NCBI GenBank assembly: GCA_004321905.1
Contig: SCQF01000053.1
Span: forward strand, 39,192-103,191
DNA from: Verrucomicrobiota bacterium
GTDB lineage: Bacteria > Verrucomicrobiota > Kiritimatiellia > CAIQIC01
Direction: 5' to 3'
Length of the DNA: 64,000 nt
Below the pieces are notes generated by a model. It was not told the DNA's origin, did no database searches, and saw only the letters and a program-made list of their open reading frames with translations. The position numbers and the translations under genes are program-made. Below, piece after piece: positions 1 to 18,087 of the stretch. How positions within the stretch are numbered: the first letter of the stretch is position 1; each line of letters starts with the position of its first letter.

Positions 1-1053
1 GCACGACGAAACTTCCAGCCAGCCGTTCTGGCCCGGCGCCCAAAGTTCTATGTCGTAGCACTTGGCGGCGGCAAAGCTCATGTCGCCTTTGCACAGCAGC
101 AGCACGCGATAGCAGAGGCCGAGGCGCTGCAACACGGTCTCGGCATTGACCACAAGCTTCTCCAGTTCGTCATAGGAAGTTTCTGGCGTGACGAACTTGA
201 CCATCTCCACCTTGTCGAACTGATGTACGCGGATCAGGCCGCGCGTGCCCGCCCCGGCGGCCCCGGCCTCGCGACGGAAGCACGGTGAGTAGGCGGTCAG
301 GTAAACCGGCAGCGGCTTGGCGATGATCTCTTCGCGGTAGATGTTCGTGATCGGCACCTCCGCGGTCGGGATCAGCCAGAGATCGTCGGCGGTGACGTGA
401 TACATGTCCTCGGCCATCTTCGGGAGCTGGCCCGTGCCGGTCATCGAAGCGCGGTTGACGACGAACGGCGTGGAGACCTCGGTATAGCCGTGTTCGCGCG
501 TGTGCAGATCGAGCATGAACTGGATCAGCGCGCGTTCCAACCGCGCGCCAAGGCCCACATAGAGCGGGAAGCCCGCGCCGGTCAGACGCGTCGCGCGCTC
601 GAAATCGAGGATGCCGAGACTCTCGCTCAACTCGACGTGCGTCTTGGGTTTGAAGGCGAACGTCTTTGGCGTGCCGTGCTGGCGCGCCACGACGTTGCCG
701 CTGGCATCGGTGCCATCGGGCGCGGAAGAGTGGGGGATGTTCGGAATGCGGAGCAGGAGGTCTTGTAACTGCGCATCAATTTCGCCGCCACGTTTATCCA
801 TCTCGGTGATACGGTCGCCGAGTTCGCGCATCGTGACCTGCTGCGCGCTGATATCGCCGCCGGCCTTCTTGATCTCGCCAAGCTTTTTGGATTCTACGTT
901 ACGCTGGTTTTTGAGCGTCTCGACCTCGGTCAGCAGGCCGCGGCGTTCCTTGTCGAGCGCGATGATCGCATCCAGATTCACATCGCTACGCTTGAACTGC
1001 AGCGTCGCCCGCACATCCGCTTCCCGTTCCCGAATCGTTTTGATGTCCAACAT
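1..1053 (-). CDS. serS: Seryl-tRNA synthetase (3' end runs off the window)
   Basis: Reverse frame from ATG 1053 reads MLDIKTIRERE... and contains the class II motifs LIPTAEVPITN, FRREAGAAG..RGLIRVHQFDKVEMVK and YDIELWA. Confidence 0.96.
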   Translation of the reverse strand, partial: MLDIKTIREREADVRATLQFKRSDVNLDAIIALDKERRGLLTEVETLKNQRNVESKKLGEIKKAGGDISAQQVTMRELGDRITEMDKRGGEIDAQLQDLLLRIPNIPHSSAPDGTDASGNVVARQHGTPKTFAFKPKTHVELSESLGILDFERATRLTGAGFPLYVGLGARLERALIQFMLDLHTREHGYTEVSTPFVVNRASMTGTGQLPKMAEDMYHVTADDLWLIPTAEVPITNIYREEIIAKPLPVYLTAYSPCFRREAGAAGAGTRGLIRVHQFDKVEMVKFVTPETSYDELEKLVVNAETVLQRLGLCYRVLLLCKGDMSFAAAKCYDIELWAPGQNGWLEVSSC

Positions 1054-1437
1054 GGTGATTCCTTTTAGCTAGGCGTATTTTTAGGCCAGCCTGCCACCAA
1101 AAGCAAGGCGCGGCGGAGAGGTTTCACCAGCGCAGTTCAAGCTGTTGAGCGGGATAATCTACCAGCGGACGAAAACAGTGCAGAAAATCTCCGACGACAA
1201 TCAGGGTCGGCGGGTTGCTGTCGAGGCCGTCGAACTCACGTGGCCCGGTTGACCAAAGCGTACGTTTTATATAGGGGCTGCGCTGGTGACTCCCGAAGGG
1301 CACGGATATCGGGATCGTAAGCGATGTCCGTCTCCATCAAATCATGCAGGTCCTCAACGACCGCCCGCGTAAGCAACTCGGTTGACGCACGCCGGCGGAA
1401 AAAATGACGGACAATATCGTAAAATGAAATCGTGTGG

Positions 1438-1498
1438 CCAACAACCCACCCGACCGCCCGCGCGGTGCACTTGGTCCTTGCATCTGCCGCCTTGGAAA
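1438..1498. repeat. 61-bp dispersed repeat, copy 1
   Basis: 57/61 identical to 47960-48020; ends in a half-site (CCTTGGAAA) of the main palindrome. Confidence 0.9.
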
Positions 1499-1567
1499 AC
1501 TGCGCCGGGCCTTGACGCCGGGGGCCGGCATCGGCTAGGGTCTGCGCGCTTTTTCGGAAGACGCTCA

Positions 1568-2236
1568 ATGCCAAAAATTGTCATCATGCCGTCAATTCTC
1601 GCCGCCGACATGGGCCGGTTGGCGGAGGAGTGTCAGCGCGCGGAAGCGGCGGGCGCGGATGCCTTGCACCTGGACATCATGGATGGCCATTTTGTGCCGA
1701 ATTTGAGCATGGGGCCGGATGTGGTGAAGATGGCGCGCGCGGCAGTGAAGATTCCGCTCGATACGCACCTGATGGTGACGCATCCGCAAAATATGACCGC
1801 GGCGTTCATCAAGGCCGGTGCAAATCCGTTGCTGATTCATGTGGAAGCACAGTGCGATGTGCGCGCGGTGTTGCACGACATTCGGAAGCATAAACTCCGC
1901 GCGGGGCTGACGTTGAACCCAGAGACGCCGGTTGAGGCGCTGTTCCCGTATCTTGCGGACGTGGATGAGGTGCTGTTCATGTCGGTGCATCCGGGCTATG
2001 GCGGGCAGGCGTTCATTCCGCAGGTGCTGCCGAAGGTGGCCGAACTGCGGCGACGCGCGCCGGAACTGGATATCTCGATTGATGGCGGGATCAACCGCGC
2101 GACGACCATCCAAGCAGCGGAACACGGCGCGAATCTCTTTGTGGCCGGCACGTATCTTTTCGGCGCGGCGGATATGCAAGCCGAGATCGCCCACATGCGC
2201 GCCGCCATTCAAAACGCCTACGGCAAGAAAGTTTGA
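1568..2236 (+). CDS. rpe: Ribulose-phosphate 3-epimerase
   Basis: PSILAAD, HLDIMDGHFVPNLSMG, MSVHPGYGGQ and IDGGIN motifs; start moved to ATG 1568. Confidence 0.96.
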   Translation: MPKIVIMPSILAADMGRLAEECQRAEAAGADALHLDIMDGHFVPNLSMGPDVVKMARAAVKIPLDTHLMVTHPQNMTAAFIKAGANPLLIHVEAQCDVRAVLHDIRKHKLRAGLTLNPETPVEALFPYLADVDEVLFMSVHPGYGGQAFIPQVLPKVAELRRRAPELDISIDGGINRATTIQAAEHGANLFVAGTYLFGAADMQAEIAHMRAAIQNAYGKKV

Positions 2237-2246
2237 TCACCACACC

Positions 2247-4049
<1,803 letters not shown>

Positions 4050-4061
4050 GGTGGGGCGGCC

Positions 4062-4127
4062 CCAAGGTTTGGAGTTTTTTCCAAGCCTTGGAAAAACCGA
4101 CACCCGACTTTTCCAAGGCTTGGAAAA
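4062..4127. repeat. TTCCAA-N3-TTGGAA palindrome pair plus partial unit
   Basis: CCAA cores at 4081 and 4113 (32 bp apart), partial unit at 4062; ends 1 nt before the lepB ATG. Confidence 0.92.
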
Positions 4128-4128
4128 T

Positions 4129-5229
4129 ATGAACTTCTGGGAACGTCGAAAATACAAGAAACTGGTTGAAGCGCTTTTGCACGACGCGCAACACACGCGC
4201 GGGATGCGCGAAGACGTCGCCGATCCCGCCGACCTCGACCGGATGGAAGGCCTCGAACAGAAATTACGCGACGCCTTGAAGGCCCGGGACGCCAAAGGTG
4301 TAGACGCCTGCGCCGAAGAGCTTGGCCAGATGCGCATGAAGATTGCGCCGCCGCGCAAATATCCGGGTTGGCGCGAGAATATCGAGATGTTTATCGTCGT
4401 GCTGGCCGTCGCCACGGGCATCCGCGCCTATTTCATCTCGCCGTTCAAGATTCCCACCGGCTCGATGCAGCCGACGCTCAACGGCATCACCGCTGTGGCG
4501 CAAACAGAGCGCGGCTTGATGGATTACTTTCCGCTCAACATCGCCAGTTTTCTGCTGTTCGGCGAACGCTATGTTGAAGTGCGCGCACCGGAGTCCGGAG
4601 AAATCAACTACGTGCAGGGCGGCGAGGAATTTTATACGTTTGCCAACCAAGGACGCACCGTCCAAATTCCGAAAGCGTTTTTCGATGAAAGCAACCGCAG
4701 TACCTGTGTCTTTTTCCGTTATTTTGGAAGCGACGTGGTCGAGAAAGGGCAACTGCTGGCCGCCGGGCGCGTGCGCACCGGGGACATGATCATGGTGGAT
4801 CGTGTCCGGTACAATTTCCTGCCGCCAAAACGTGGCGATGTGATTGTGTTTCGAACGAAGAATGTCCATCATGCAGGTGTGCGTACGACCGATCATTATA
4901 TCAAGCGTCTGGTCGGCTTGCCGGGTGAAACCATCCGGATTGATCCGCCATATCTGGTCGTCAACGACAAGAAAGTTGAACAACCGTTTCCTTTCCACCG
5001 ACTGCTGACCGATCCGCGCTATGTTGGGTATACCTTGCCAGTCGGTTCAATGCTCGACACGCCCGCAGATTCGATTAAGGTCGGCTCCAACGAATTTCTG
5101 CCGTTTGGCGACAATACGCGATCGAGCCTTGACGGTCGCTACTTCGGGCCTGTGACCCGGAACGACTTACTCGGTCCAGCCTTTATGGTCTTCTGGCCAT
5201 TCACGGGACGCTGGGGCTTGGTTCGCTAG
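4129..5229 (+). CDS. lepB: Signal peptidase I with N-terminal helical extension
   Basis: PFKIPTGSMQPTL (catalytic Ser), YIKRLVGLPGE (catalytic Lys), GDNTRSSLDGRYFG; follows lepA. Confidence 0.95.
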   Translation: MNFWERRKYKKLVEALLHDAQHTRGMREDVADPADLDRMEGLEQKLRDALKARDAKGVDACAEELGQMRMKIAPPRKYPGWRENIEMFIVVLAVATGIRAYFISPFKIPTGSMQPTLNGITAVAQTERGLMDYFPLNIASFLLFGERYVEVRAPESGEINYVQGGEEFYTFANQGRTVQIPKAFFDESNRSTCVFFRYFGSDVVEKGQLLAAGRVRTGDMIMVDRVRYNFLPPKRGDVIVFRTKNVHHAGVRTTDHYIKRLVGLPGETIRIDPPYLVVNDKKVEQPFPFHRLLTDPRYVGYTLPVGSMLDTPADSIKVGSNEFLPFGDNTRSSLDGRYFGPVTRNDLLGPAFMVFWPFTGRWGLVR

Positions 5230-5320
5230 TTCATTCTCCAGCTTGCCTTGGAAGAGCAATCTACCGGAGAGCGCGCATCCTCACGCACTAAAACCATACG
5301 TGATGTTGGCCACGCGCCAC

Positions 5321-5372
5321 GTAGAAGCGACCTCCGGTCGCTTTTCCTGATGCGGACGGAGTCCGCATCTAC
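5321..5372. repeat. Inverted pair of GTAG-type REP-like hairpins
   Basis: GTAG-AAGCGACC-tcc-GGTCGCTT, and on the opposite strand GTAG-ATGCGGAC-tcc-GTCCGCATC. Confidence 0.7.
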
Positions 5373-5444
5373 GCCGGGGCTTCAGCCGGCCACATCATTT
5401 ATGGAAACGCTCTAAAGGTGACCTGCCACAGTTTCATCTATATA

Positions 5445-5472
5445 ACGTCGCATAATATATCTTATGTCTAGC
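5445..5472 (+). other. dif-like XerC/XerD recombination site
   Basis: ACGTCGCATAA-TATATC-TTATGTCTAGC has 11-6-11 geometry like E. coli dif (GGTGCGCATAA-TGTATA-TTATGTTAAAT); AT-rich convergent intergenic position. Confidence 0.7.
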
Positions 5473-5560
5473 ATATGATAGGTCGAACCGCAAGTAATTC
5501 GACTTTGGGTGGTTTCTGGGTTGCTTGGCTACTAGCGCGGGCCTGTTCGTAATTCTGCGA

Positions 5561-7027
5561 CTAAGTCTGCGGTAAGGCCTTCTTGGGCGCGATCTGATTA
5601 TAGATGTTGAGATATTCGCGTGCCGACTTGGTCCACGAGACATCTTGCTGCATGGCCCGAAGCATAAGGCTCTGCCACATCCCCGCCTTACAAAACCAAC
5701 CTAAGGCTTGATCGAGACTGGCCAACATAGCGGCGGGTTTATAGACGCTGAATTTGAACCCTGTCCCCTTGGTGCCGTCCGAACTGACCTGTTCGATGGT
5801 GTCATCCAGCCCCCCAACCGCCGTCACAAGCGGTATAGTGCCGTAGCGCATCGCATAGAGCTGGCTCAACCCGGACGGCTCGAACTTGGACGGCATCAGG
5901 AGCATGTCGGAGCCCGCGATGATCTTCCGGGCCAACGGCGTGTCGTAGTCCAGTTTAACGGCAAACCGATCGGGCCATTTCTGCGCCCATTGTCGGCATA
6001 GATCGTGATACTTCTGCATCCCCAAGCCCAAAATAACCAGCGACACATCGCGTTTCATGATCTCCGGCATGGCTTCCGCCAGCAAATCCATGCCTTTTTG
6101 GTCGGTCAGCCGTGTAATCATGCCGAGGATCGGTCGTTCCGCCTTCAGCGGCAGCCCCATCAGGTGTGCGAGGTTCAGACGGCAAGCCTGTTTACCTTCG
6201 AGTTTGCTCGGCTCGAAGCGCGCCGTGATCTGCTGGTCGGTACCAGGATCCCAATCGGCATAGTCCACGCCATTTTGGATGCCGACCAACTTCGGGCCGA
6301 GCCGGGAGAGCAACCCATGCAAGCCGCAGCCAAAAGCCTCGGTTTGGATTTCGCGCGCGTATGCGCGGCTGACGGTCGTCACGCAATCCGCCGACGTGAT
6401 CCCGGCCTTCATGCAACTCACGTTGCCGTAGAACTCAAAACCGTCCATATGAAAATAAAGAAACGGCAGATTGGTGATGCTATAGGCAGAGCCTGGGAAA
6501 ATGCCCTGAAAGGCCAGATTATGAATCGTGAACACCGTCCGTTCACGGGCCTCGCGCCCCATGCCACGCACGCCGTGACGTAGAAACAGCGGCAGCAAAC
6601 CGGTCTGCCAGTCATTACAATGCACCACGTCCGCCTTCAACTCCAGCGCATCAATCAACGCCACGACGGCTTTCTGAAAAAACACGAAGCGCTCAAAATT
6701 GTCGTCGTAATCCTTTTCCGGTGCGCCATACAGATGTGAGCGGTCAAAAAATTCGTCGCGGCGGATGAAGTACGTCGTGGGCGCCGGATCATCGGCGACC
6801 CAGATTTCCGCCGCGTAAGTCCGAAAGCCCACCGGCACTTCGATGCGCACGCCGGTGTCGCGCGGATGAAAACCGCGCTCGGCCACCAAATGGTACAGCG
6901 GCATGACGCGCCAGACTTCCACGCCCGGCTCGTGGGCCAGCGCCCGCGGCAGCGACCCGGCCACATCGGCCAGGCCGCCGGTGGAGGCGAAGGGATTGAT
7001 TTCACTGGCCGCGTACACGATTTTCAT
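5561..7027 (-). CDS. glgA: Glycogen synthase (GT5)
   Basis: STGGLADV, VVHCNDWQTG, FTIHNLAFQG and PSKFEPSGLSQLYAMRYG motifs. Confidence 0.95.
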   Translation of the reverse strand: MKIVYAASEINPFASTGGLADVAGSLPRALAHEPGVEVWRVMPLYHLVAERGFHPRDTGVRIEVPVGFRTYAAEIWVADDPAPTTYFIRRDEFFDRSHLYGAPEKDYDDNFERFVFFQKAVVALIDALELKADVVHCNDWQTGLLPLFLRHGVRGMGREARERTVFTIHNLAFQGIFPGSAYSITNLPFLYFHMDGFEFYGNVSCMKAGITSADCVTTVSRAYAREIQTEAFGCGLHGLLSRLGPKLVGIQNGVDYADWDPGTDQQITARFEPSKLEGKQACRLNLAHLMGLPLKAERPILGMITRLTDQKGMDLLAEAMPEIMKRDVSLVILGLGMQKYHDLCRQWAQKWPDRFAVKLDYDTPLARKIIAGSDMLLMPSKFEPSGLSQLYAMRYGTIPLVTAVGGLDDTIEQVSSDGTKGTGFKFSVYKPAAMLASLDQALGWFCKAGMWQSLMLRAMQQDVSWTKSAREYLNIYNQIAPKKALPQT

Positions 7028-7031
7028 AGTG

Positions 7032-7082
7032 TTTTCCAATCCTTGGAAATCGGCGGGCGCACTTTTTCCAAGCCTTGGAAAA
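7032..7082. repeat. TTCCAA-N3-TTGGAA palindrome pair
   Basis: Cores at 7036 and 7068 (32 bp); between divergent glgA and rnr. Confidence 0.92.
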
Positions 7083-7139
7083 CCCGCCGCGATTCCTATT
7101 CGTCAAACCATCGGCTTTGATTTATAATCCTTGAAACGC

Positions 7140-9086
7140 ATGAAGGCAAAGACTTTTGAGCAGCAAATTCTGGCGTGGCTGGCGCGACCGGGTTATCGCC
7201 CGCTCAAGCAGCACGAATTGGCGCGCGCGCTCGGCGTCACCGAGCGTGTGATTTTCCGCCGCACACTCTACGCGTTGGAACGCGCGGGTCGGATCGTCTG
7301 CCTTCGTAAAAACCGTTACGCGCTGCCGCCACCCGCCAAGGAGAAACTCCGTGGTGCCGCCGCCGAGGCTCCGCGCAGTGCGATCATCGTCGGACGGCTC
7401 ATGCGAAATCCGTATTACTGGTACGTGATGCCCGACCAAGCGCGGCGCAGGGCGCACAATGTCCGCGTCCGCGAATTCGCCGCCACGATCAAGCCGGTGG
7501 ATGGACACATCGTCGTATTGCGACTCGACGAAGCGCCGCACGCCGAGGAGCAGCCTGTCGGTGTGGTCATCGAAGACCTTGGACGCGCCGAAACACCGGG
7601 CGTGGATATGCTCCGCATCATCCGCCGGCGCGAGTTTGCCACGGACTTTCCGCTGGCCGCGCGTAGCCAGGCGGCGCACACCACCGTGCCCCCTGCCCCG
7701 GCCCTGCGCGCCGATGGCCGGCGTGATTTGCGCGACTGGACGACGTTCACGATTGATCCCGATGACGCCAAGGATTTTGATGACGCGCTGTCGCTGACCG
7801 CGCTGCCGGATGGCCGCTGGCAACTGGGCGTACACATCGCCGATGTCTCGCACTATGTGACGCCGGATTCGCCGATTGACCGCGAGGCGCGCGAACGCGG
7901 CAACACCATCTATCTCGTGGATCGCGCCATCACCATGTTGCCGCCCAATCTGACCGCCGACATATGCAGCCTTTTGCCACAGCAGGATCGGTTGACGCAT
8001 AGTGCGATGTTGACCTTTGACCGCCATCACCGCGTCGAGTCCGTGGAGACTTTTCCCGCGGTGATTCATTCTGCCGCCCGTCTGACCTACGGGCAGGTGG
8101 AGCTGTTGTTTGAGGGACATCACATTGACAAAATTCCGTCGGTGGTTCGGGAGCCACTGTTGCAACTGCGCCCCTTGGCACGTGAATGGCGGAAACGACG
8201 ACTGCAACATGGCGCGCTCGATCTGGCGGTGCCGGAGGTCAAGTGCATCATGGATGCGCACGGATACATCACCGCGATCAAGCAACGCGGCGACGCCGAA
8301 GCCTATCAAATGATCGAAGAATGTATGTTGCTCGCCAACGTCGCGGTCGCCGAACGGCTGCGCGCGGGTGGTGGCCCGGCACTCTATCGCATTCATGACG
8401 AGCCGGACGCCGAGCAATGGGACGAAATGCGCGAAGCGTTACGCGCCCTCGGCGCGCCCATGATTCCCGCGACACCCGATGATCTGAATAAATTATTACA
8501 TCGCGTCGCGGGCACGCCGCTCGCGGCAACATTGAACCTGATCGTCGTGCGCTGTCTCAAGCGGGCCATGTATTCCGCCGAGTTGCGTCCACACTTCGGG
8601 TTGGCGTTTCCGCGCTACACGCACTTCACCTCGCCGATCCGCCGCTATCCCGATCTCGTGGTGCATCGCTTGCTCAAAGCCGTGGAGCAAAGCGCTCCCC
8701 CACCCTACACCAAATCCGCACTCGCCCGTCTGGCCACGCATTGTTCCACCGCCGAAAAGGCTGCTGATGAGGCCGAAAATGAGAGTGTTGAGGTCAAACG
8801 CGTCGCTTACTACGAAGAGAAGCTGCGGCGTGGCGATATCGGTCCGTTCGCCGGCGTCGTGACCGGCCTGCTCGGTAAAGGTTTGATGGTGGAACTCCGC
8901 GACTCATTGCAACGCGGCCTGCTGCCGTTCGCCGCGCTCAAAAACGATTACTACGAGATGAATGCCGCGCGCACACACGTCAAAGGCAAGCGCCGTGGCG
9001 GCGGCTGGAAAATCGGCCAGCCGCTGGAGGTCGTGCTCACCCGCGTGGATACGGCCAACCGCTGGATGGATTTTGCGCTGCCCTGA
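7140..9086 (+). CDS. rnr: Ribonuclease R / RNB-family exoribonuclease
   Basis: FTIDPDDAKDFDDAL, HIADVSHYV, HFGLAFPRYTHFTSPIRRYPDLVVHR, C-terminal S1 domain; TATAAT at 7123. Confidence 0.92.
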   Translation: MKAKTFEQQILAWLARPGYRPLKQHELARALGVTERVIFRRTLYALERAGRIVCLRKNRYALPPPAKEKLRGAAAEAPRSAIIVGRLMRNPYYWYVMPDQARRRAHNVRVREFAATIKPVDGHIVVLRLDEAPHAEEQPVGVVIEDLGRAETPGVDMLRIIRRREFATDFPLAARSQAAHTTVPPAPALRADGRRDLRDWTTFTIDPDDAKDFDDALSLTALPDGRWQLGVHIADVSHYVTPDSPIDREARERGNTIYLVDRAITMLPPNLTADICSLLPQQDRLTHSAMLTFDRHHRVESVETFPAVIHSAARLTYGQVELLFEGHHIDKIPSVVREPLLQLRPLAREWRKRRLQHGALDLAVPEVKCIMDAHGYITAIKQRGDAEAYQMIEECMLLANVAVAERLRAGGGPALYRIHDEPDAEQWDEMREALRALGAPMIPATPDDLNKLLHRVAGTPLAATLNLIVVRCLKRAMYSAELRPHFGLAFPRYTHFTSPIRRYPDLVVHRLLKAVEQSAPPPYTKSALARLATHCSTAEKAADEAENESVEVKRVAYYEEKLRRGDIGPFAGVVTGLLGKGLMVELRDSLQRGLLPFAALKNDYYEMNAARTHVKGKRRGGGWKIGQPLEVVLTRVDTANRWMDFALP

Positions 9087-12671: not shown

Positions 12672-14666
12672 TTATTTCCGCGCGAGGAGCTTCTTGGCGG
12701 TTTCGACGATGTTCGCCGTCGTGAAGCCAAATTTCTCCGCCAGCACCTTGCCCGGTGCGGAGGCGCCGAAGTGGTCAATACCGACCACTTTACCGGTATT
12801 GCCGACGTACTTCTCCCAGCCCATCGCACAACCAGCCTCCACCGCCACGCGACGTTTGCAACCCGGCGGCAGCACATCGTTGCGATATTTCTTGGTCTGT
12901 TGCTCAAACAAATCCCACGAAGCCATGTTGACCACGCGAACGTTCGCACCTTCTGCCGCGAGTTGTTCGCCCGCCGCCAGGGTGATGGCCACTTCCGAGC
13001 CGCTGCCGATCAGGATGAGGTCCGGCGTCCCCTGCCCGCTCTGCCACAACGTATAAGCACCGTTGCGGATGCTGGAGGCTGCCGGGAATTTGCTGCGGTC
13101 GAGCACCGGCAATGCTTGGCGCGTCAAGAGCAGTGCCGTCGGGCCGTCGGTGCGCTCCAATGCGAGTTGCCACGCGGCGGCGGTTTCGGTCGGATCGCCG
13201 GGACGAAGGATCGAAACGTTCGGCATGCAGCGCAACGCCGCGATGTGCTCGATCGGCTCGTGCGTCGGGCCATCTTCGCCGACGAAAATGCTGTCGTGCG
13301 TCAGCACATAGAGCGCCGGAATCTTCATCAGAGCCGCGAGCCGGATCGCCGGACGGCAATAGTCGGTAAAGACGAAGAACGTCGCGCCATAGACAATCCA
13401 GCCGCCGTGCAGAATCATGCCGTTGATGATGCCCAGCATACCGTGTTCGCGCACACCAAAGTGCAGGTTACGGCCCAAGAACTGGCGCTTGCCGATATCG
13501 GCGAAGCCTTTGAGGTGCGTGTTGTTGCTCGGTGCGAGGTCGGCGGAACCGCCAATGAGATTCGGCAACACCTTGGCCAGCGCGTTGAGCGTTTCGCCAG
13601 ATGCTTGCCGCGTCGCCATCGGCTTGGTCGGATCGAACACCGGTAACGCCTTGGCGAGGTCCGCCGGCAATTTACGCTTCTGGTGGATGTCCCACTCTTG
13701 CGCCAGTTCCGGATTGACCTGCTTCCACGCGGCCAGTTTCTGCTTCCACGTGGCATTGGCCTGGGCCAGATCGGCGGCGCGGGCCACGAACATCGCGCGC
13801 ACTTCGTCCGGCACAAAGAAATCCTTATCCACCGGCATACCGAGCGCGGCCTTGGTCGCCTTGACCTCGTCGGTGCCGAGCGGTTCGCCGTGCGCCTTGT
13901 GGGAGTCGCGTTTGTTCGGGCTACCCTGCCCGATGTGCGTGTGACCAATGATCAGCGTCGGCTTCTCCTGCGACGTACGCGCTTGGGCCAGCGCCTGCTC
14001 GCACGCTGCCGCATCGTGACCATCAATCTCCAGCACGTTCCAGCCATAGGCATCGAAGCGCTTGCGGACGTCGTCGCTGGTAGCGAGGCTGGTTTTGCCT
14101 TCGATGGTAATCTCGTTGTAGTCGTAGAACGCGATCAGCTTGTTCAGCCCCAGATGCCCCGCCAGCGAGCACGCCTCGTGGCTGATGCCTTCCATCATGC
14201 AGCCATCCCCCATGATGGTGTAGGTGTAGTGATCCACGACGTTCTGGCCGTCCTTGTTGAACTTGGCCGCGAGCATCGCCTCGGCCAGCGCCATACCGAC
14301 CGCGTTGCTGATGCCGGCGCCGAGCGGGCCGGTCGTCGTTTCCACACCCACCGTGTGACCGAACTCCGGGTGACCCGGCGTCTTGCTGTCCCACTGCCGG
14401 AATTGCTGGAGTTGCTCGATCGGTAGCGCGTAGCCCGAAAGATGCAACATGCTATAGAGCAACATCGAACCGTGACCGGCGGAAAGGACGAAGCGGTCGC
14501 GGTCGGGCCACTGCGGGTCGGCGGGATCGTGCTTGAGATACTTCAGCCACAAAACACTGGCGAATTCGGCGCAACCCATCGGCATACCCGGATGCCCGGA
14601 GTTGGCTTTTTGTACGCCGTCCATGGCCAAGCCACGGATCGTATTGGCAGCGAGCGTGAGGTTCAT
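12672..14666 (-). CDS. tkt: Transketolase
   Basis: ANSGHPGMPMG, DRDRFVLSAGHGSMLLY, GDGCMMEG, THDSIFVGEDGPTH. Confidence 0.98.
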   Translation of the reverse strand: MNLTLAANTIRGLAMDGVQKANSGHPGMPMGCAEFASVLWLKYLKHDPADPQWPDRDRFVLSAGHGSMLLYSMLHLSGYALPIEQLQQFRQWDSKTPGHPEFGHTVGVETTTGPLGAGISNAVGMALAEAMLAAKFNKDGQNVVDHYTYTIMGDGCMMEGISHEACSLAGHLGLNKLIAFYDYNEITIEGKTSLATSDDVRKRFDAYGWNVLEIDGHDAAACEQALAQARTSQEKPTLIIGHTHIGQGSPNKRDSHKAHGEPLGTDEVKATKAALGMPVDKDFFVPDEVRAMFVARAADLAQANATWKQKLAAWKQVNPELAQEWDIHQKRKLPADLAKALPVFDPTKPMATRQASGETLNALAKVLPNLIGGSADLAPSNNTHLKGFADIGKRQFLGRNLHFGVREHGMLGIINGMILHGGWIVYGATFFVFTDYCRPAIRLAALMKIPALYVLTHDSIFVGEDGPTHEPIEHIAALRCMPNVSILRPGDPTETAAAWQLALERTDGPTALLLTRQALPVLDRSKFPAASSIRNGAYTLWQSGQGTPDLILIGSGSEVAITLAAGEQLAAEGANVRVVNMASWDLFEQQTKKYRNDVLPPGCKRRVAVEAGCAMGWEKYVGNTGKVVGIDHFGASAPGKVLAEKFGFTTANIVETAKKLLARK

Positions 14667-14807
14667 TTCGATTTTCCTTTTCGTTGAATGCGACGCAAAA
14701 ACGCGCTGTCGTTTAGCAGGCGACGCCCGCAAAGTCAAGGCAACGGCAACGCTTCACCGCCAAGTCGCCAAGGACGCCAAGATCGGACAAAACCTGCGCC
14801 GCCGAAC

Positions 14808-14891
14808 TTTTCCAAGGCCCGGAAATCGTGAAGCAAAGGTTTTCCAACCATTGGGAACCCCGCCAACTCTCTATTCCAATGATTGGGAAAA
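14808..14891. repeat. TTCCAA-N3-TTGGAA palindrome triple (degenerate)
   Basis: Cores at 14812, 14844 and 14876 (32 + 32 bp). Confidence 0.85.
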
Positions 14892-14897
14892 GCGTGG

Positions 14898-14955
14898 TTT
14901 TAACATTCCGCGTCATGCGCGCGGGTGCCGCGTCGCATGAACGCGGTTGTTGGCA
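14898..14955 (-). mobile_element. Integron attC-like site
   Basis: TGCCAAC-aa-CCGCGT-t-CATGCG-a-CGCGG-cac-CCGCG-CGCATG-ACGCGG-aat-GTTAAAA: AAC/GTT cores, imperfect palindrome with two unpaired bases, 4 nt after the ATPase stop codon. Confidence 0.78.
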
Positions 14956-14959
14956 TTCC

Positions 14960-16471
14960 TCATGATGACAGCGACTCCTCGATCTCTCTGAGAACGGCGA
15001 CGACCTCGGCAGCGGATGATTCAAATTCAGCGCGAAGAGTATCTTCGTTCTTTCCGATTGCGCCCTCAACTTCCTCAAGGAGAGCACGCTTGGCCTCGCG
15101 TTTGGCCTTCTTGTCTGCAAGCGCCTTCACCTGAGCCACTCGATCCGCAAAGCGCACGGGATAGTAGTCCTCAAAGTTGTGATTTGCCAATTGCTTGAAT
15201 TGTCTCCGATTCCATCCAGTACGGCCATAAAACTCTGCTAGTTGATCCACAATGGTCTTTTCGGCATCACCCCCGTCAACCAAAACCCACGCCTTGTTCT
15301 TGTACGCAGGCTCCAGATGAAGAAATACAAGTAGTTCGTTGAAGTCACGGAACCGGGGGGCAACTTCGGAGAGAGAATGTGCAGAGTAAGTCCGGAGCCT
15401 TGGGCCGAGCGACGGAACGAACCACGGTATGAGGTATTCGCGAATCATCTTCTCTGCGGATGATTCCTCGAGGATGAGCCATGCCGCCCACATATCTACA
15501 TCGTGAAGTTCGTAACCCAGCTCCGAGAGCACCTCCCGTCTACTATCAGGGGACGCGTCTATTTCTCTCACGCTTGACGTGGGCATCCTCTTGACTAGGG
15601 TTGAATCGACTCGGAGAACCTTGCACTCCGGGTACGACCCAAGGCGTTTCAGAACGATGTTTGAATGGGTCGTAAGGATGAACTGGTTCTCGGCTGACTT
15701 CTCACCGATGAGGTCGAGTAACGCCTTTAGAGCCTTTGGGTGGACATCATTCTCCGGTTCCTCGATAAGGAAAAGTTGGTTCTCGGCGATTGCCAAGTGA
15801 ACGACAAGACCAAGAATATTCATTACGCCCTCTCCCATTGCGAGCAAGGGGATTTGGTTCATATTGCGGACTGTGTACACGGCCCGCTTCCCTTGACCTG
15901 TATGGGCAGTTGTGACCCTGAACCCCAATATCTCGTCGCATGCACGCATGTACAAGGCATGCGCGGGAAGAAACTCGGGATTGGAGAGGCGGTCAATCTT
16001 GGCATTCAGATTCGTGAACGTCGAAGGAACTGCTTCAACAACGCCGTCGCTGACTTGCTCACCCAGTTGGGTTACTTTACGTTTCGAGACGAATGGGTAG
16101 ATGAAGTTCCCCGGCTCCTTTCCGGGAGGCTTGTGCACGTGTTCATGGTGGTTCGTTCCTTCAATAACCTCTAAAAGGGGGAAATCGTTATGATCCTTCC
16201 GGTATAGATACCGGGCTCGTGTGAGCTTCTTGTGAAAGTATTTCTGATCGCAGTCTCCGAACGTGATTTCAGCTCTCGCCTCGGTCTCCCCCAATCTCAC
16301 ATCCTCCGGCCTTGGATAGGGAAGACCATCCTGAAGACCGAGCAGAGGAAGAAGGATCGTGGACTTCCCTGCGTTGTTTGGCCCAACAAGGACGTTGATA
16401 CGCTTGGAGAAATCGACCTTCGCTTCTACAAAGGAGCGGATGTTCTTCAATATCAGCGACTGAATCCACAT
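14960..16471 (-). CDS. ABC-type ATPase with TOPRIM-like domain (OLD-family-like nuclease)
   Basis: Walker A GPNNAGKS, signature MGEG, Walker B LIEEPENDVHP, H-loop TTHS; C-terminal ILEESSAE...LVDGGD; more AT-rich than the flanks. Confidence 0.75.
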   Translation of the reverse strand: MWIQSLILKNIRSFVEAKVDFSKRINVLVGPNNAGKSTILLPLLGLQDGLPYPRPEDVRLGETEARAEITFGDCDQKYFHKKLTRARYLYRKDHNDFPLLEVIEGTNHHEHVHKPPGKEPGNFIYPFVSKRKVTQLGEQVSDGVVEAVPSTFTNLNAKIDRLSNPEFLPAHALYMRACDEILGFRVTTAHTGQGKRAVYTVRNMNQIPLLAMGEGVMNILGLVVHLAIAENQLFLIEEPENDVHPKALKALLDLIGEKSAENQFILTTHSNIVLKRLGSYPECKVLRVDSTLVKRMPTSSVREIDASPDSRREVLSELGYELHDVDMWAAWLILEESSAEKMIREYLIPWFVPSLGPRLRTYSAHSLSEVAPRFRDFNELLVFLHLEPAYKNKAWVLVDGGDAEKTIVDQLAEFYGRTGWNRRQFKQLANHNFEDYYPVRFADRVAQVKALADKKAKREAKRALLEEVEGAIGKNEDTLRAEFESSAAEVVAVLREIEESLSS

Positions 16472-16496
16472 AGCCGATCTTCCTCTTCTGTTCGTG

Positions 16497-16525
16497 TGGC
16501 AACAGTATTATTGAGCGAACTAAAG
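16497..16525 (-). mobile_element. Cassette 5' core / attI-like remnant
   Basis: Minus strand TTTAGTTCGCTCAATAATACT-GTTGCCA; GTTGCCA is 6/7 complementary to the attC inverse core TGCCAAC and lies 25 nt before the ATG. Confidence 0.55.
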
Positions 16526-16639
16526 GTTGTCTTTATACAGCCGTCCTTTCCGCGTCACGGTGGCAAGATAAGGCGGGCGACTTGTCTTGCCAAGCGGGAA
16601 AACATCTGTGCACAAAGAGAATCGAAAAGCAGTTCGTTG

Positions 16640-16657
16640 TTTCCACGCCTTGGAAAA
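16640..16657. repeat. TTCCAA-N3-TTGGAA palindrome, single
   Basis: TTTCCACGCCTTGGAAAA just upstream of TTGACG-N17-TAATGC. Confidence 0.8.
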
Positions 16658-16725
16658 GCGAAAGAAGCTTTGACGCTGCCGTTGGGTGGTGGTAATGCTC
16701 GCTGCGTTCTCAAAGGAGTTGAGTC

Positions 16726-17487
16726 ATGAGCAAGAATTTCAAACGGATTGCAATTGTGACGGGGGCGACGTCGGGGATTGGTGAAGCAACGGCGCGGAAA
16801 TTTGTTGCCGCCGGATTCGGCGTGGTCGGCAACGGGCGTAACGCCACGAAACTCGCGACGCTCGAAAAGGAGTTGGGACGTGCCTTCTGCGGCGTCGCTG
16901 GCAATGCCGCCGATGGTGCTGTGCTGGAGCAACTCTTTGCCGCAGCCACCAAGCATTTCGGCAAGTCGGCGGACATCGTCGTGGCCAACGCCGGGCGCGG
17001 GTTGGGCGGTTCGGTCAAGGACGCCGATTTGGTGCAATTTGAGGAAGTGCTCAAAACCAACGTCGCCGGTACGCTCGCCTTACTCCAAAAAGCTGCCCAG
17101 AAAATGCTGGATGGGCAACAGCGTACCTTCCCGAAGTCGGCGGCGGACATCGTCATCGTCGGGTCGGTAGTGGGACGGAACATCTCTCCGTTCAGCGCGG
17201 TCTATGGCGCCACCAAGTTCGCCGTGCATGCGCTGGCCGAAGGTTTACGACGCGAAATCGGACCGAAAGGTGTACGCGTTTCGCTGGTTGAGCCGGGGAT
17301 TCTGATCAGCGGATTCCAAGCCGTGGCCGGCTATAGCGATGCGATGGTGAACACCTTCAAAGAAAAATTCGGGCCGTTGGTCGAGACCACCGACGTAGCG
17401 AATGCCATCCACTATATCGTCACCCAACCGCCCCATGTGCATATCAGCGATATCACCATCCGCCCCACGCGGCAGGATTATCCCTGA
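16726..17487 (+). CDS. Short-chain dehydrogenase/reductase
   Basis: TGATSGIG, NAG and YGATK motifs; RBS AAGGAG. Confidence 0.92.
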   Translation: MSKNFKRIAIVTGATSGIGEATARKFVAAGFGVVGNGRNATKLATLEKELGRAFCGVAGNAADGAVLEQLFAAATKHFGKSADIVVANAGRGLGGSVKDADLVQFEEVLKTNVAGTLALLQKAAQKMLDGQQRTFPKSAADIVIVGSVVGRNISPFSAVYGATKFAVHALAEGLRREIGPKGVRVSLVEPGILISGFQAVAGYSDAMVNTFKEKFGPLVETTDVANAIHYIVTQPPHVHISDITIRPTRQDYP

Positions 17488-17496
17488 TTTCTTACC

Positions 17497-17565
17497 CTCT
17501 GCGAGCTTTGCGCGCTCCGCGCGAACCATTCGGATTTTCGCGCAGAGAACGCGGAGCACGCAAAG
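17497..17565. repeat. Inverted ~9-bp-period triad repeat between convergent genes
   Basis: CTCTGCGAGCTTTGCGCGCTCCGCGCGAA...TTCGCGCAGAGAACGCGGAGCACGCAAAG. Confidence 0.6.
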
Positions 17566-18087
17566 TTAGGAGGCGCTAAGTTCCCGTTGATAGGTCGCAA
17601 AGGCTTCGGGGCTGAAGGCAACGAAGGTGACTTGTTCCGGCAATTTCTTTTGAGCCAATTCCGCGCGGCAGGTTTCCACGGCGATGCGCGTGGCGCGGTC
17701 GAGCGGAAAGCGATAGACGCCGGTGCTGATGGCCGGAAACGCGATGGTACGGATGTTGTGTTCACGCGCGAGCTTCAGACTGCTGCGATAACACGAGGCC
17801 AGTAGTTCATCCTCGCCTTTACCGCCGCCACTCCACACCGGGCCGACGGTGTGGATGACCCACTTGGCGCGCAGTTTGAAGCCCGGTGTGATTTTGGCGT
17901 TGCCGGTGGCGCAGCCGCCGAGTTTGGCGCACTTGAGGAAGAGCCGCGTTCCCGCCGCGCGATGAATCGCGCCATCCACCCCACCCCCGCCCAGTAGCGT
18001 CGAGTTGGCGGCATTGACGAGGGCATCCACCGCGAGCGTGGTGATATCGCCTTCTATCACACGCAAGCGTTCGCTGGCGGGGTTCAT
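17566..18087 (-). CDS. Macro-domain O-acetyl-ADP-ribose deacetylase (YmdB-like)
   Basis: [42 protein letters not shown]. Confidence 0.93.

Follow-up and report, generated by a model that had tools for sequence, protein, structure and literature searches.

Organization of the locus

We analysed a 64,000-nt stretch of DNA (hereafter the window, to which all coordinates refer) located on contig C5 of the source genome (G000). Between the transketolase gene tkt and a gene of a short-chain dehydrogenase/reductase (SDR), the window carries a putative integron gene cassette, which consists of one gene for an OLD-like protein (P0001), a hairpin directly downstream of it, and an adjoining stretch with homology to integrons of congeneric genomes (Table 1). 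A preliminary description, made from the sequence alone, had presented the gene as compositionally foreign, and the base composition bears this out: its GC content is 52.2% and its GC at third codon positions (GC3) is 59.5%, compared with 59.0% GC for the genome and a GC3 of 78% and 70% for tkt and the SDR gene, respectively. Both flanking genes had been named correctly, as was evident from Pfam matches.

Table 1. Features of the locus, with coordinates in the 64,000-nt window
Feature	Position	Strand	Evidence
OLD-like gene (P0001), 503 aa: ABC ATPase, predicted Toprim-like domain, C-terminal helices	14960..16471	-	open reading frame (ORF), Pfam, AF2 model with predicted local distance difference test (pLDDT) of 90.6
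ABC ATPase domain, residues 1-280	15632..16471	-	Pfam; nucleotide-binding residues invariant in 39 homologues
Predicted Toprim-like beta-alpha core (about residues 325-430) and helical C-terminus (433-503)	14963..15499	-	C-terminal model, pLDDT 95.3
attC site, as assigned by model and fold; R'' TGCCAAC at 14949-14955, R' GTT at 14902-14904	14898..14955	-	model R1, fold
Putative gene cassette, G|TT to G|TT, 1599 bp, with 31-nt leader	14904..16502	-	coordinates; 5' boundary as in L149, L150, L151
Putative attI remnant, crossover G at 16503	16503..16604	-	identity to intI-adjacent sequence of G001/G002, dc-megablast, alignment
SDR gene, divergent from the cassette, at the intI position of congeners	16726..17487	+	Pfam adh_short, E 4e-39
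Two palindromes of TTCCAA-N4-TTGGAA type between attC and the tkt promoter	14842..14889	.	motif scan; further copy at 16640-16655
Transketolase gene (tkt)	12672..14666	-	Pfam; 86-87% identity to relatives; upstream part to about 14739 common with G001
Macro-domain gene	17566..18087	-	Pfam Macro, E 3e-47; G001 orthologue directly upstream of tkt

The hairpin as an attC site

The hairpin begins 4 nt past the stop codon of the OLD-like gene. Its DNA fold has an energy of -24 kcal/mol (z -4.5), and none of 200 shuffled sequences was as stable. The outer pairs are formed by AACA and TGTT, the 5' arm contains single-base bulges, and the 3' arm contains two unpaired A. The architecture of an attC site with two unpaired bases on one arm had been ascribed to it previously; the position, the cores, and the attC assignment (see below) stand, and the statement on the unpaired bases is roughly right. 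The hairpin is present in a single copy in the genome, and a repetitive extragenic palindromic (REP-type) repeat was rejected on this ground. It was not flagged by a terminator scan because no T-run follows it.

Arrays of 58–71-nt repeats with the classical attC layout adjoin intI at loci L136, L142, and L144, which belong to three genomes from other families of the order. A covariance model, designated R1, was built from 25 attC sites located beside intI at these loci; the site of the window was excluded from the training, and the R''/R' pairs were added to the model structure. RNAalifold on the 25 aligned sites gave 14 pairs, 13 of them with compensatory changes. With filters off, R1 matched positions 14898–14955 (minus strand) with 24.9 bits (E 3.3e-5), the alignment covering all 66 model positions, and the runner-up in the 64 kb was an unstructured match of 14.4 bits. 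Non-training attC sites beside intI in other genomes scored 16–66 bits, and the four attC sites of G001, a genome of the same genus, scored 19.0, 25.2, 26.2, and 36.7 bits. One of these four has the same 11-nt start as the site of the window (AATGCCAACAA). The geometry is that found elsewhere in the lineage, namely, stem-bulge-stem-bulge-stem, the spacers measuring 2 nt on one side and 3 nt on the opposite side. As a negative control, R1 was run with default filters on 929 kb of loci with distant homologues of the protein and gave no match at E<=1. A model derived from other genomes of the order thus matches the hairpin over its full length, with a score within the range of intI-adjacent sites of the same genus, and judging by this match and the fold, the hairpin is an attC site.

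attI remnant, cassette boundary, and the absent integrase

The motif GTTGCCA is found at 16497–16503 (minus strand), 25 nt before the ATG, and is complementary in six of seven positions to TGCCAAC at 14949–14955, exactly as the preliminary description had placed it. The 40 nt upstream of the cassette are identical in 38 positions to the intI-adjacent region of G001 and in 32 positions to that of a second congener, G002. In the 40 nt after the TT, the identity falls to 7 and 8 positions, respectively. G001 and G002 compared with each other across the same crossover share 34/40 positions before it and 10/40 after it. Since the identity breaks at G|TT in the window, in G001, and in G002 alike, we read this as one common site followed by three different first cassettes. 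A common site joined at G|TT to different first cassettes is the product expected of attI x attC recombination. The stretch which had been termed attI-like is therefore homologous to intI-adjacent sequence of two congeners, and the homology stops exactly at G|TT. When the G001 attI segment was compared by dc-megablast with the whole source genome, the single match was this locus (104 nt at 78%). The homology fades approximately 100 nt upstream of the crossover, near a copy of a host palindrome. The cassette itself had been recognized as such, with an extent that we correct to 14904–16502, i.e., 1599 bp from G|TT to G|TT.

The intI gene was not found at the locus, where its place is taken by an SDR gene. 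This gene is read in the opposite direction and starts 223 nt from the crossover, and a possible intI start codon of G001 and G002, read by eye from the alignment, falls at the SDR position. In the genome as a whole, no match to the integron integrase model TIGR02249 exceeded the cut-off (best 83 bits vs. a cut-off of 265), so the element was rightly described as integrase-less. The absence of a tyrosine recombinase near the cassette holds as well: PF00589 matches of the genome are located on contigs C38, C85, C26, C27, C69, C18, and C65 and none on C5. By homology, then, attI adjoins the cassette and intI does not, so that one of these two components of a complete integron is present at the locus. 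Among 55 genomes of the order, 27 have TIGR02249 matches over the cut-off, including two of the three other genomes of the genus, compared with none of the 14 controls.

A decayed intI-related fragment was detected elsewhere in the source genome, at C65:16837–17359 on the minus strand (loci L008, L012, and L013). It is 47–57% identical to an IntI of the order over two pieces of approximately 40 residues and has in-frame stops. No R1 match was found near it (best 10.7 bits).

The same cassette in other contexts

A metagenome scan with the protein yielded nine loci, on which R1 was run with filters off. The closest homologue, L149 (82% identity), has two R1 matches downstream (14.8 and 24.7 bits), each preceded by an additional ORF, and an AT-rich degenerate attC-like stretch starting with GCCAACAA comes directly after its stop codon. 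At L150 (70% identity), the end of the coding region is overlapped by an attC of 29.1 bits, which opens with the same 13 nt as the site of the window (TGCCAACAACCGC). L151 and L153 (64% identity; mutually identical in the parts seen) have a 42.5-bit attC 186 nt upstream of the homologue, directly after an ORF of the HEPN type. In L149, L150, and L151, the sequence G|TTGGCA, the exact complement of R'' of the window, is located 18–25 nt before the ATG. Thus, all three distinct contigs with homologues of 64–82% identity had same-strand R1 matches of 24.7–42.5 bits within about 1.4 kb.

No R1 match was obtained at the five metagenome loci with homologues of 49–53% identity, nor at E<=1 at 80 genome loci with homologues of 37–61% identity; eight of the latter, rescanned with filters off, gave only 12–13 bits. 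Hairpins downstream of the distant homologues were unrelated to each other. Since R1 matches accompany the homologues of 64–82% identity and none accompanies more distant ones, one clade of the family appears to travel as a cassette, and the wider family would not, at least with this type of attC.

The surroundings of the close homologues were as follows. In L149 (2406–7109), an ORF of a DDE transposase precedes the homologue, and an ORF with a TIR domain and a further ORF follow it. These two end near the attC-model matches of 14.8 and 24.7 bits, which suggests a small cassette array. L151, like L153, carries in 222–8169 Schlafen/AlbA_2-HATPase_c_4, a DNA methylase and a BglII-type endonuclease, a RiboL-PSP HEPN ORF, and a HepT-like ORF; the 42.5-bit attC directly follows the HEPN ORF.

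Comparison with related genomes

None of 40 relatives in the order had an orthologue of the OLD-like gene; three weak matches were found, all in the ATPase region. In G001, tkt comes directly after the orthologue of the macro-domain gene (84% identity by tblastx), a short intergenic stretch being all that separates the two. Comparison with an empty site had been proposed previously, and G001 provides one. The window consequently holds approximately 2.8 kb of extra sequence (about 14740–17565), which contains the SDR gene, the attI remnant, the cassette, and several host palindromes. The segment missing from G001 is thus larger than the cassette alone and includes the SDR gene, which differs from what the preliminary description had implied. 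The SDR gene had no orthologue in five relatives, with a best match of 37% identity. In the regions upstream of tkt in G001, G002, G003, and G005, no attC was found (best 10.7 bits).

The integron of G001 (L133, G001:C16 142–3822) consists of an intI gene interrupted by a single in-frame stop, attI, two attC sites, and, as judged by eye, a small antitoxin-toxin pair. It is located between genes that in the source genome lie approximately 150 nt apart on C81:80866–81015. The integron position of each congener is therefore an empty site in the other, and the integron platform lies at different chromosomal places in the two congeners.

On the cassette side of intI, 11 of 15 stretches in genomes of the order end at a contig end within a few kilobases (L134, L135, L137–L141, L143, and L145–L147). 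Repeated attC sites break short-read assemblies. Given the contig ends so near to intI, the cassette arrays of the order are probably much larger than is visible. The draft source genome comprises 2.53 Mb with an estimated completeness of 94%, and three other genomes of the genus have 5.3–7.2 Mb; either the source genome is strongly reduced or the marker-based completeness is overstated.

The OLD-like protein

Residues 1–280 of P0001 matched Pfam AAA_15 (E 5.5e-26), AAA_21 (E 1.8e-20), and SMC_N. Residues G30, K36, Q47, E237, E238, and H269 were invariant in 39 homologues; in terms of the motifs of ABC ATPases, G30..K36 is Walker A and E237-E238 belong to Walker B, with Q47 and H269 as further nucleotide-binding residues. 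Matches in PADLOC, NCBIfam, and PDB sequences (AriA, GajA, PtuA, MAD3, Rad50) were confined to this ATPase part, and the ATPase also dominated the Foldseek matches of the full-length model.

The C-terminal domain is predicted with high confidence (Table 1) as a beta-hairpin, four beta-alpha units, and a helical bundle. In an exhaustive VIA-align comparison with 48,161 chains, the top three matches were the C-terminal regions of OLD-family proteins: first, BpOLD (6nk8_B, Z 10.4, 152 aligned residues, rmsd 3.4), then GajA (8u7i_A, Z 9.0) and TsOLD (6p74_A, Z 9.0). Further Toprim proteins were retron Eco2 (Z 7.8), a small Toprim protein (6.8), T7 primase (6.7), and Topo VI (5.7), the lower scores being intermixed with generic Rossmann-like folds at about Z 6. 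A Z of 7–8 is the typical best score for unmatched models with this method, so the margin is real but not large. In the protein atlas, the best feature matches for residues 283–503 scored 0.94 and fell into clusters with PF20469 (OLD-like_TOPRIM) in 82% and 98% of members, and the structure matches were OLD/GajA-type clusters with TM of 0.56–0.66. According to the model, the C-terminal domain has a Toprim fold.

The metal-binding residues of two OLD enzymes have been described (PMC7049728): in TsOLD, metal A is bound by E377, D431, and D433 and metal B by D381, S478, and E480, and the equivalents in BpOLD are E400, D455, and D457 and E404, T506, and E508. Correspondences to P0001 were assigned by secondary-structure position, not by superposition. 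E336 follows the strand 330–334, with E340 four residues on; D399 follows the strand 394–398, and E434 follows the strand 425–427. The atypical motifs EE (335-336) and DGGD (399-402), noted in the preliminary description, are present: E335, E336, E340, D399, and G401 were invariant in the 39 homologues, E434 was invariant or nearly so, E404 was nearly invariant, and D402 was variable. G401 occupies the position of the second Asp of DxD. The earlier designation of the protein as an OLD-like ATPase-Toprim can be retained, the ATPase being recognized by Pfam and the C-terminal domain by its predicted fold alone; we consider this assignment very likely.

Protein family and gene context

Of 8000 candidates scored in a word-based search, 1396 proteins reached E<=1e-3, and a genome scan gave 283 confirmed relatives, distributed among Verrucomicrobiota, Planctomycetota, Cyanobacteria, Bacteroidota, Chloroflexota, Actinomycetota, candidate phyla, and Proteobacteria. 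With a profile of the C-terminal domain and a threshold of E<=1e-3, at least 650 representatives of 50%-identity clusters from many phyla were recovered. Among the 150 best of these 650 representatives, almost all were approximately 500 aa long and carried the domain at their C-terminal end; shorter ones are perhaps fragments. Some members of the family are named "ATP-dependent nuclease" by NCBI and UniRef, so their OLD-like nature has already been recognized by annotation.

No recurrent neighbour was found in the 80 genome loci except alaS in six related Nostocales, which suggests a stand-alone gene. Defence-type neighbours of the close homologues were the TIR-domain ORF in L149 and, in L151, the methylase, the BglII-type endonuclease, RiboL-PSP HEPN, Schlafen/AlbA_2, and the HepT-like ORF. 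At loci L021–L072, we also sampled the longest ORF of each flank of the homologue, and 82 such ORFs were scanned with PADLOC models. Matches included retron RT-Toprim, SspH, PD-T4-6, type II methylases, and a phospholipase effector.

Relation to known systems

OLD proteins have been divided into Classes 1–5 (PMC10568477, PMC12796447, PMC12392090). With Class 1 (P2 Old and the OLD proteins of Thermus scotoductus and Vibrio cholerae), P0001 shares the match of its C-terminal model to TsOLD mentioned above. Unlike Class 1, it has no sequence match to the OLD Toprim profiles, it has D-G-G with an invariant Gly at the place of DxD, and its model contains a C-terminal helical bundle, which is absent from TsOLD (PMC7049728). 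The best structural matches were to Class 2 OLD and GajA of Gabija, including the helical region that follows the Toprim domain, and the ExxxE spacing of E336/E340 resembles that of BpOLD E400/E404, again by secondary-structure position, not superposition. Differences from this class are that neither a UvrD/PcrA-like helicase (gajB) nor another conserved neighbour occurs in the 80 loci and that the protein is approximately 75 residues shorter than GajA, whose chains have 575–598 residues. Unlike in Class 4 (PARIS AriA/AriB), ATPase and Toprim-like domain are encoded by one gene, and the best PADLOC matches to AriA cover only the ATPase; unlike in retrons, no reverse transcriptase lies beside genes of this type in the 80 loci.

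As for the cassette, isolated single-attC cassettes (SALIN; 10.1101/2022.09.11.507474) and degraded integrons (CALIN; PMC9024848) have been described. The element resembles them in having one attC and one ORF with no integrase nearby, but unlike them, it still has a remnant of attI attached, which points to an origin by loss of intI and not by insertion at a genomic site. Integron cassettes are known to encode anti-phage systems (10.1101/2024.07.02.601686; 10.1101/2024.07.02.601719). The cassette of the window likewise carries a compact candidate defence gene, in this case in an uncultured lineage. The words OLD, Gabija, and Toprim do not occur as whole words in the main text of 10.1101/2024.07.02.601686, although its supplements may list such systems. 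A divergent OLD-like gene on an orphan cassette lies within known kinds of elements and proteins.

The question whether single-attC elements arise by integron decay or by random insertion is open for most of them, as stated in 10.1101/2022.09.11.507474. The locus would be a clean natural example, in which the attached attI marks a decayed integron and not an insertion at a random site. It would also extend the range of defence-type genes found on cassettes by one of the OLD-like ATPase-Toprim kind, from a lineage distant from the studied Vibrio and clinical integrons. The protein belongs to a widespread family, encoded in the window by one gene of 503 aa, whose putative nuclease domain escapes sequence profiles and is devoid of the second Asp of DxD. 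A 2023 review raised the question whether standalone OLD proteins can provide defence without partners (PMC10568477).

Weighing of the evidence

Taken as a whole, the locus is probably an orphan integron cassette which has kept attI, lost its integrase, and carries a divergent OLD-like gene. Its first part, an integron cassette with an attI remnant, we regard on sequence grounds as highly probable; anti-phage defence as the role of the protein is somewhat favoured.

Several points weigh against this interpretation. R1 is a home-made, lineage-specific model with only roughly calibrated E-values, and 24.9 bits is at the low end of the range of true sites. Two positions shared by all training sites, TA after the second stem and C before GTT, are missing from the attC of the window. 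It was the sole R1 match at E<=1 in the 2.53-Mb genome, but only 150 of 1559 first-look candidates were scored there. The 5' core GTTGCCA differs from GTTGGCA of the homologues. Regarding the protein, the C-terminal part of approximately 220 residues matched Pfam in none of 44 members and matched a Toprim family, including PF20469, in none of the 44 at E<=10, and comparison of the C-terminal domain with PDB sequences gave nothing meaningful. With Foldseek, the domain alone had no match at E<=1e-3 (OLD 6nk8_A ranked seventh with E 0.05); the PADLOC and Foldseek comparisons suggested earlier matched the ATPase part and left the domain without a match at this threshold. Where TsOLD and BpOLD have the second Asp of DxD as a ligand of metal A (PMC7049728), P0001 has the invariant Gly401, which makes nuclease activity uncertain. 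Among the 82 sampled neighbour ORFs, 12 matched PADLOC at E<=1e-10, a figure with no background rate, for which no enrichment is claimed. Finally, the only run in which the stretch is listed is a DNA run labelled groundwater metagenome, possibly the source itself, and no RNA run is listed.

For the cassette, a reading in which the gene arrived in some other way and the hairpin is no more than a transcription terminator or a palindrome formed by chance is scarcely credible. GC-rich hairpins are common after stop codons, and many distant homologues have unrelated ones downstream, but the hairpin of the window has neither a T-run nor a terminator call, matches the attC model over its full length, shares 13 nt with the attC of the 70% homologue, and has an attI flank; the match to the attC model and the homology to attI led us to drop this reading. 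Alternatively, the cassette could have been inserted in trans by an integrase at an ordinary genomic site of attG type, giving a SALIN with no integron platform. Single-attC cassettes are common, insertion outside att sites has been shown experimentally (10.1101/2022.09.11.507474), and with no intI at the locus, the integrases of congeners could have acted in trans. The 100 nt upstream are, however, homologous to the intI-adjacent region of two congeners, and this homology ends exactly at G|TT, as predicted for attI and not for a random GWT target, and we consider such an insertion very improbable. A somewhat better, though still low, probability attaches to an intact intI that is present in the organism but unassembled, in which case the cassette would still be mobile in the living cell: the draft is 94% complete in 85 contigs, 11 of the 15 stretches in relatives end at a contig end near intI, and the decayed intI-like fragment lies on C65. 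Against it, no TIGR02249 match exceeds the cut-off (83 vs. 265 bits), and the locus is contiguous, with the SDR gene where intI would be.

The most substantial doubt concerns the protein, which may not be a defence nuclease. It could have a dead Toprim domain and act through the ATPase only, or it could have a housekeeping role in DNA or chromatin like that of archaeal Cran1; this is unlikely, though by no means negligible. G401 is invariant in the family in place of the second Asp of DxD, the Toprim domain of E. coli YbjD is reported to be dispensable (PMC13261556), and Cran1, an OLD-family ATPase, is reported to take part in cell-cycle progression and apparently not in antiviral defence (PMC12796447). 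A housekeeping role nevertheless fits poorly with the patchy distribution, the carriage on a cassette, and the defence-type neighbours of the closest homologues, and the (near-)invariance of E336, E340, D399, and E434 speaks for a working metal site and so against a dead domain.

Proposed history and function

The locus may be described as the remnant of a chromosomal integron, with approximately 100 nt of attI, one cassette of 1599 bp, and an attC typical of the lineage. IntI would once have inserted the circular cassette at attI, at G|TT, through the folded bottom strand of attC. Later loss of intI and its replacement by the SDR gene would have frozen the cassette in place. Its gene would be transcribed from outside the cassette. 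By analogy with Class 1 OLD, the protein would work on its own, attacking the nucleic acid of invading phages or plasmids as a nuclease under ATP control. Binding or hydrolysis of ATP may gate a Toprim nuclease which cuts phage or host nucleic acid, and the nuclease would use the conserved acidic cluster E336/E340/D399/E434.

It is possible, but on balance doubtful, that the family of approximately 500-aa proteins is a distinct, uncharacterized OLD-like class, a streamlined one-gene anti-phage system of which one clade is packaged as an integron cassette in an uncultured, integron-rich lineage. Such a class, a tentative proposal, would combine the single-gene context of Class 1, a helical C-terminus as in Class 2, and a rewired metal site (E-x3-E, D-G-G, E). 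Should this be true, the window would present a defence cassette fixed by loss of the integrase, with another gene in the position of intI.

Other features of the locus

A 9.4-kb contig from another assembler spans 14300–17900 with no differences and no joints, although it possibly derives from the same reads. Joints of variants without the cassette were not seen among assembled contigs, which drop rare variants. A weak sigma-70-like consensus match is present at 16593–16565 on the minus strand, within the attI remnant. An Rfam search of 14000–17500 at E<=10 gave nothing relevant.

Between the convergent macro-domain and SDR genes, a long inverted repeat (17490–17560) resembles a two-way terminator. 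It was considered as a second attC and rejected, as R1 listed no match there at E<=10.

The TTCCAA-N4-TTGGAA palindrome (consensus about TTTnCnAnGnnTnGnAAA) has 1857 matches with up to two mismatches in the 2.53 Mb of the source genome, compared with 23 in 1 Mb of shuffled sequence; many of the 1857 are the same site with the register shifted by one base. The window contains 54 matches, including those at 14842–14857, 14874–14889, and 16640–16655, and copies flank the region of the integron remnant at both ends. The copies are usually 31 nt apart (252 cases), and clusters of the same motif also occur in the congener G001.

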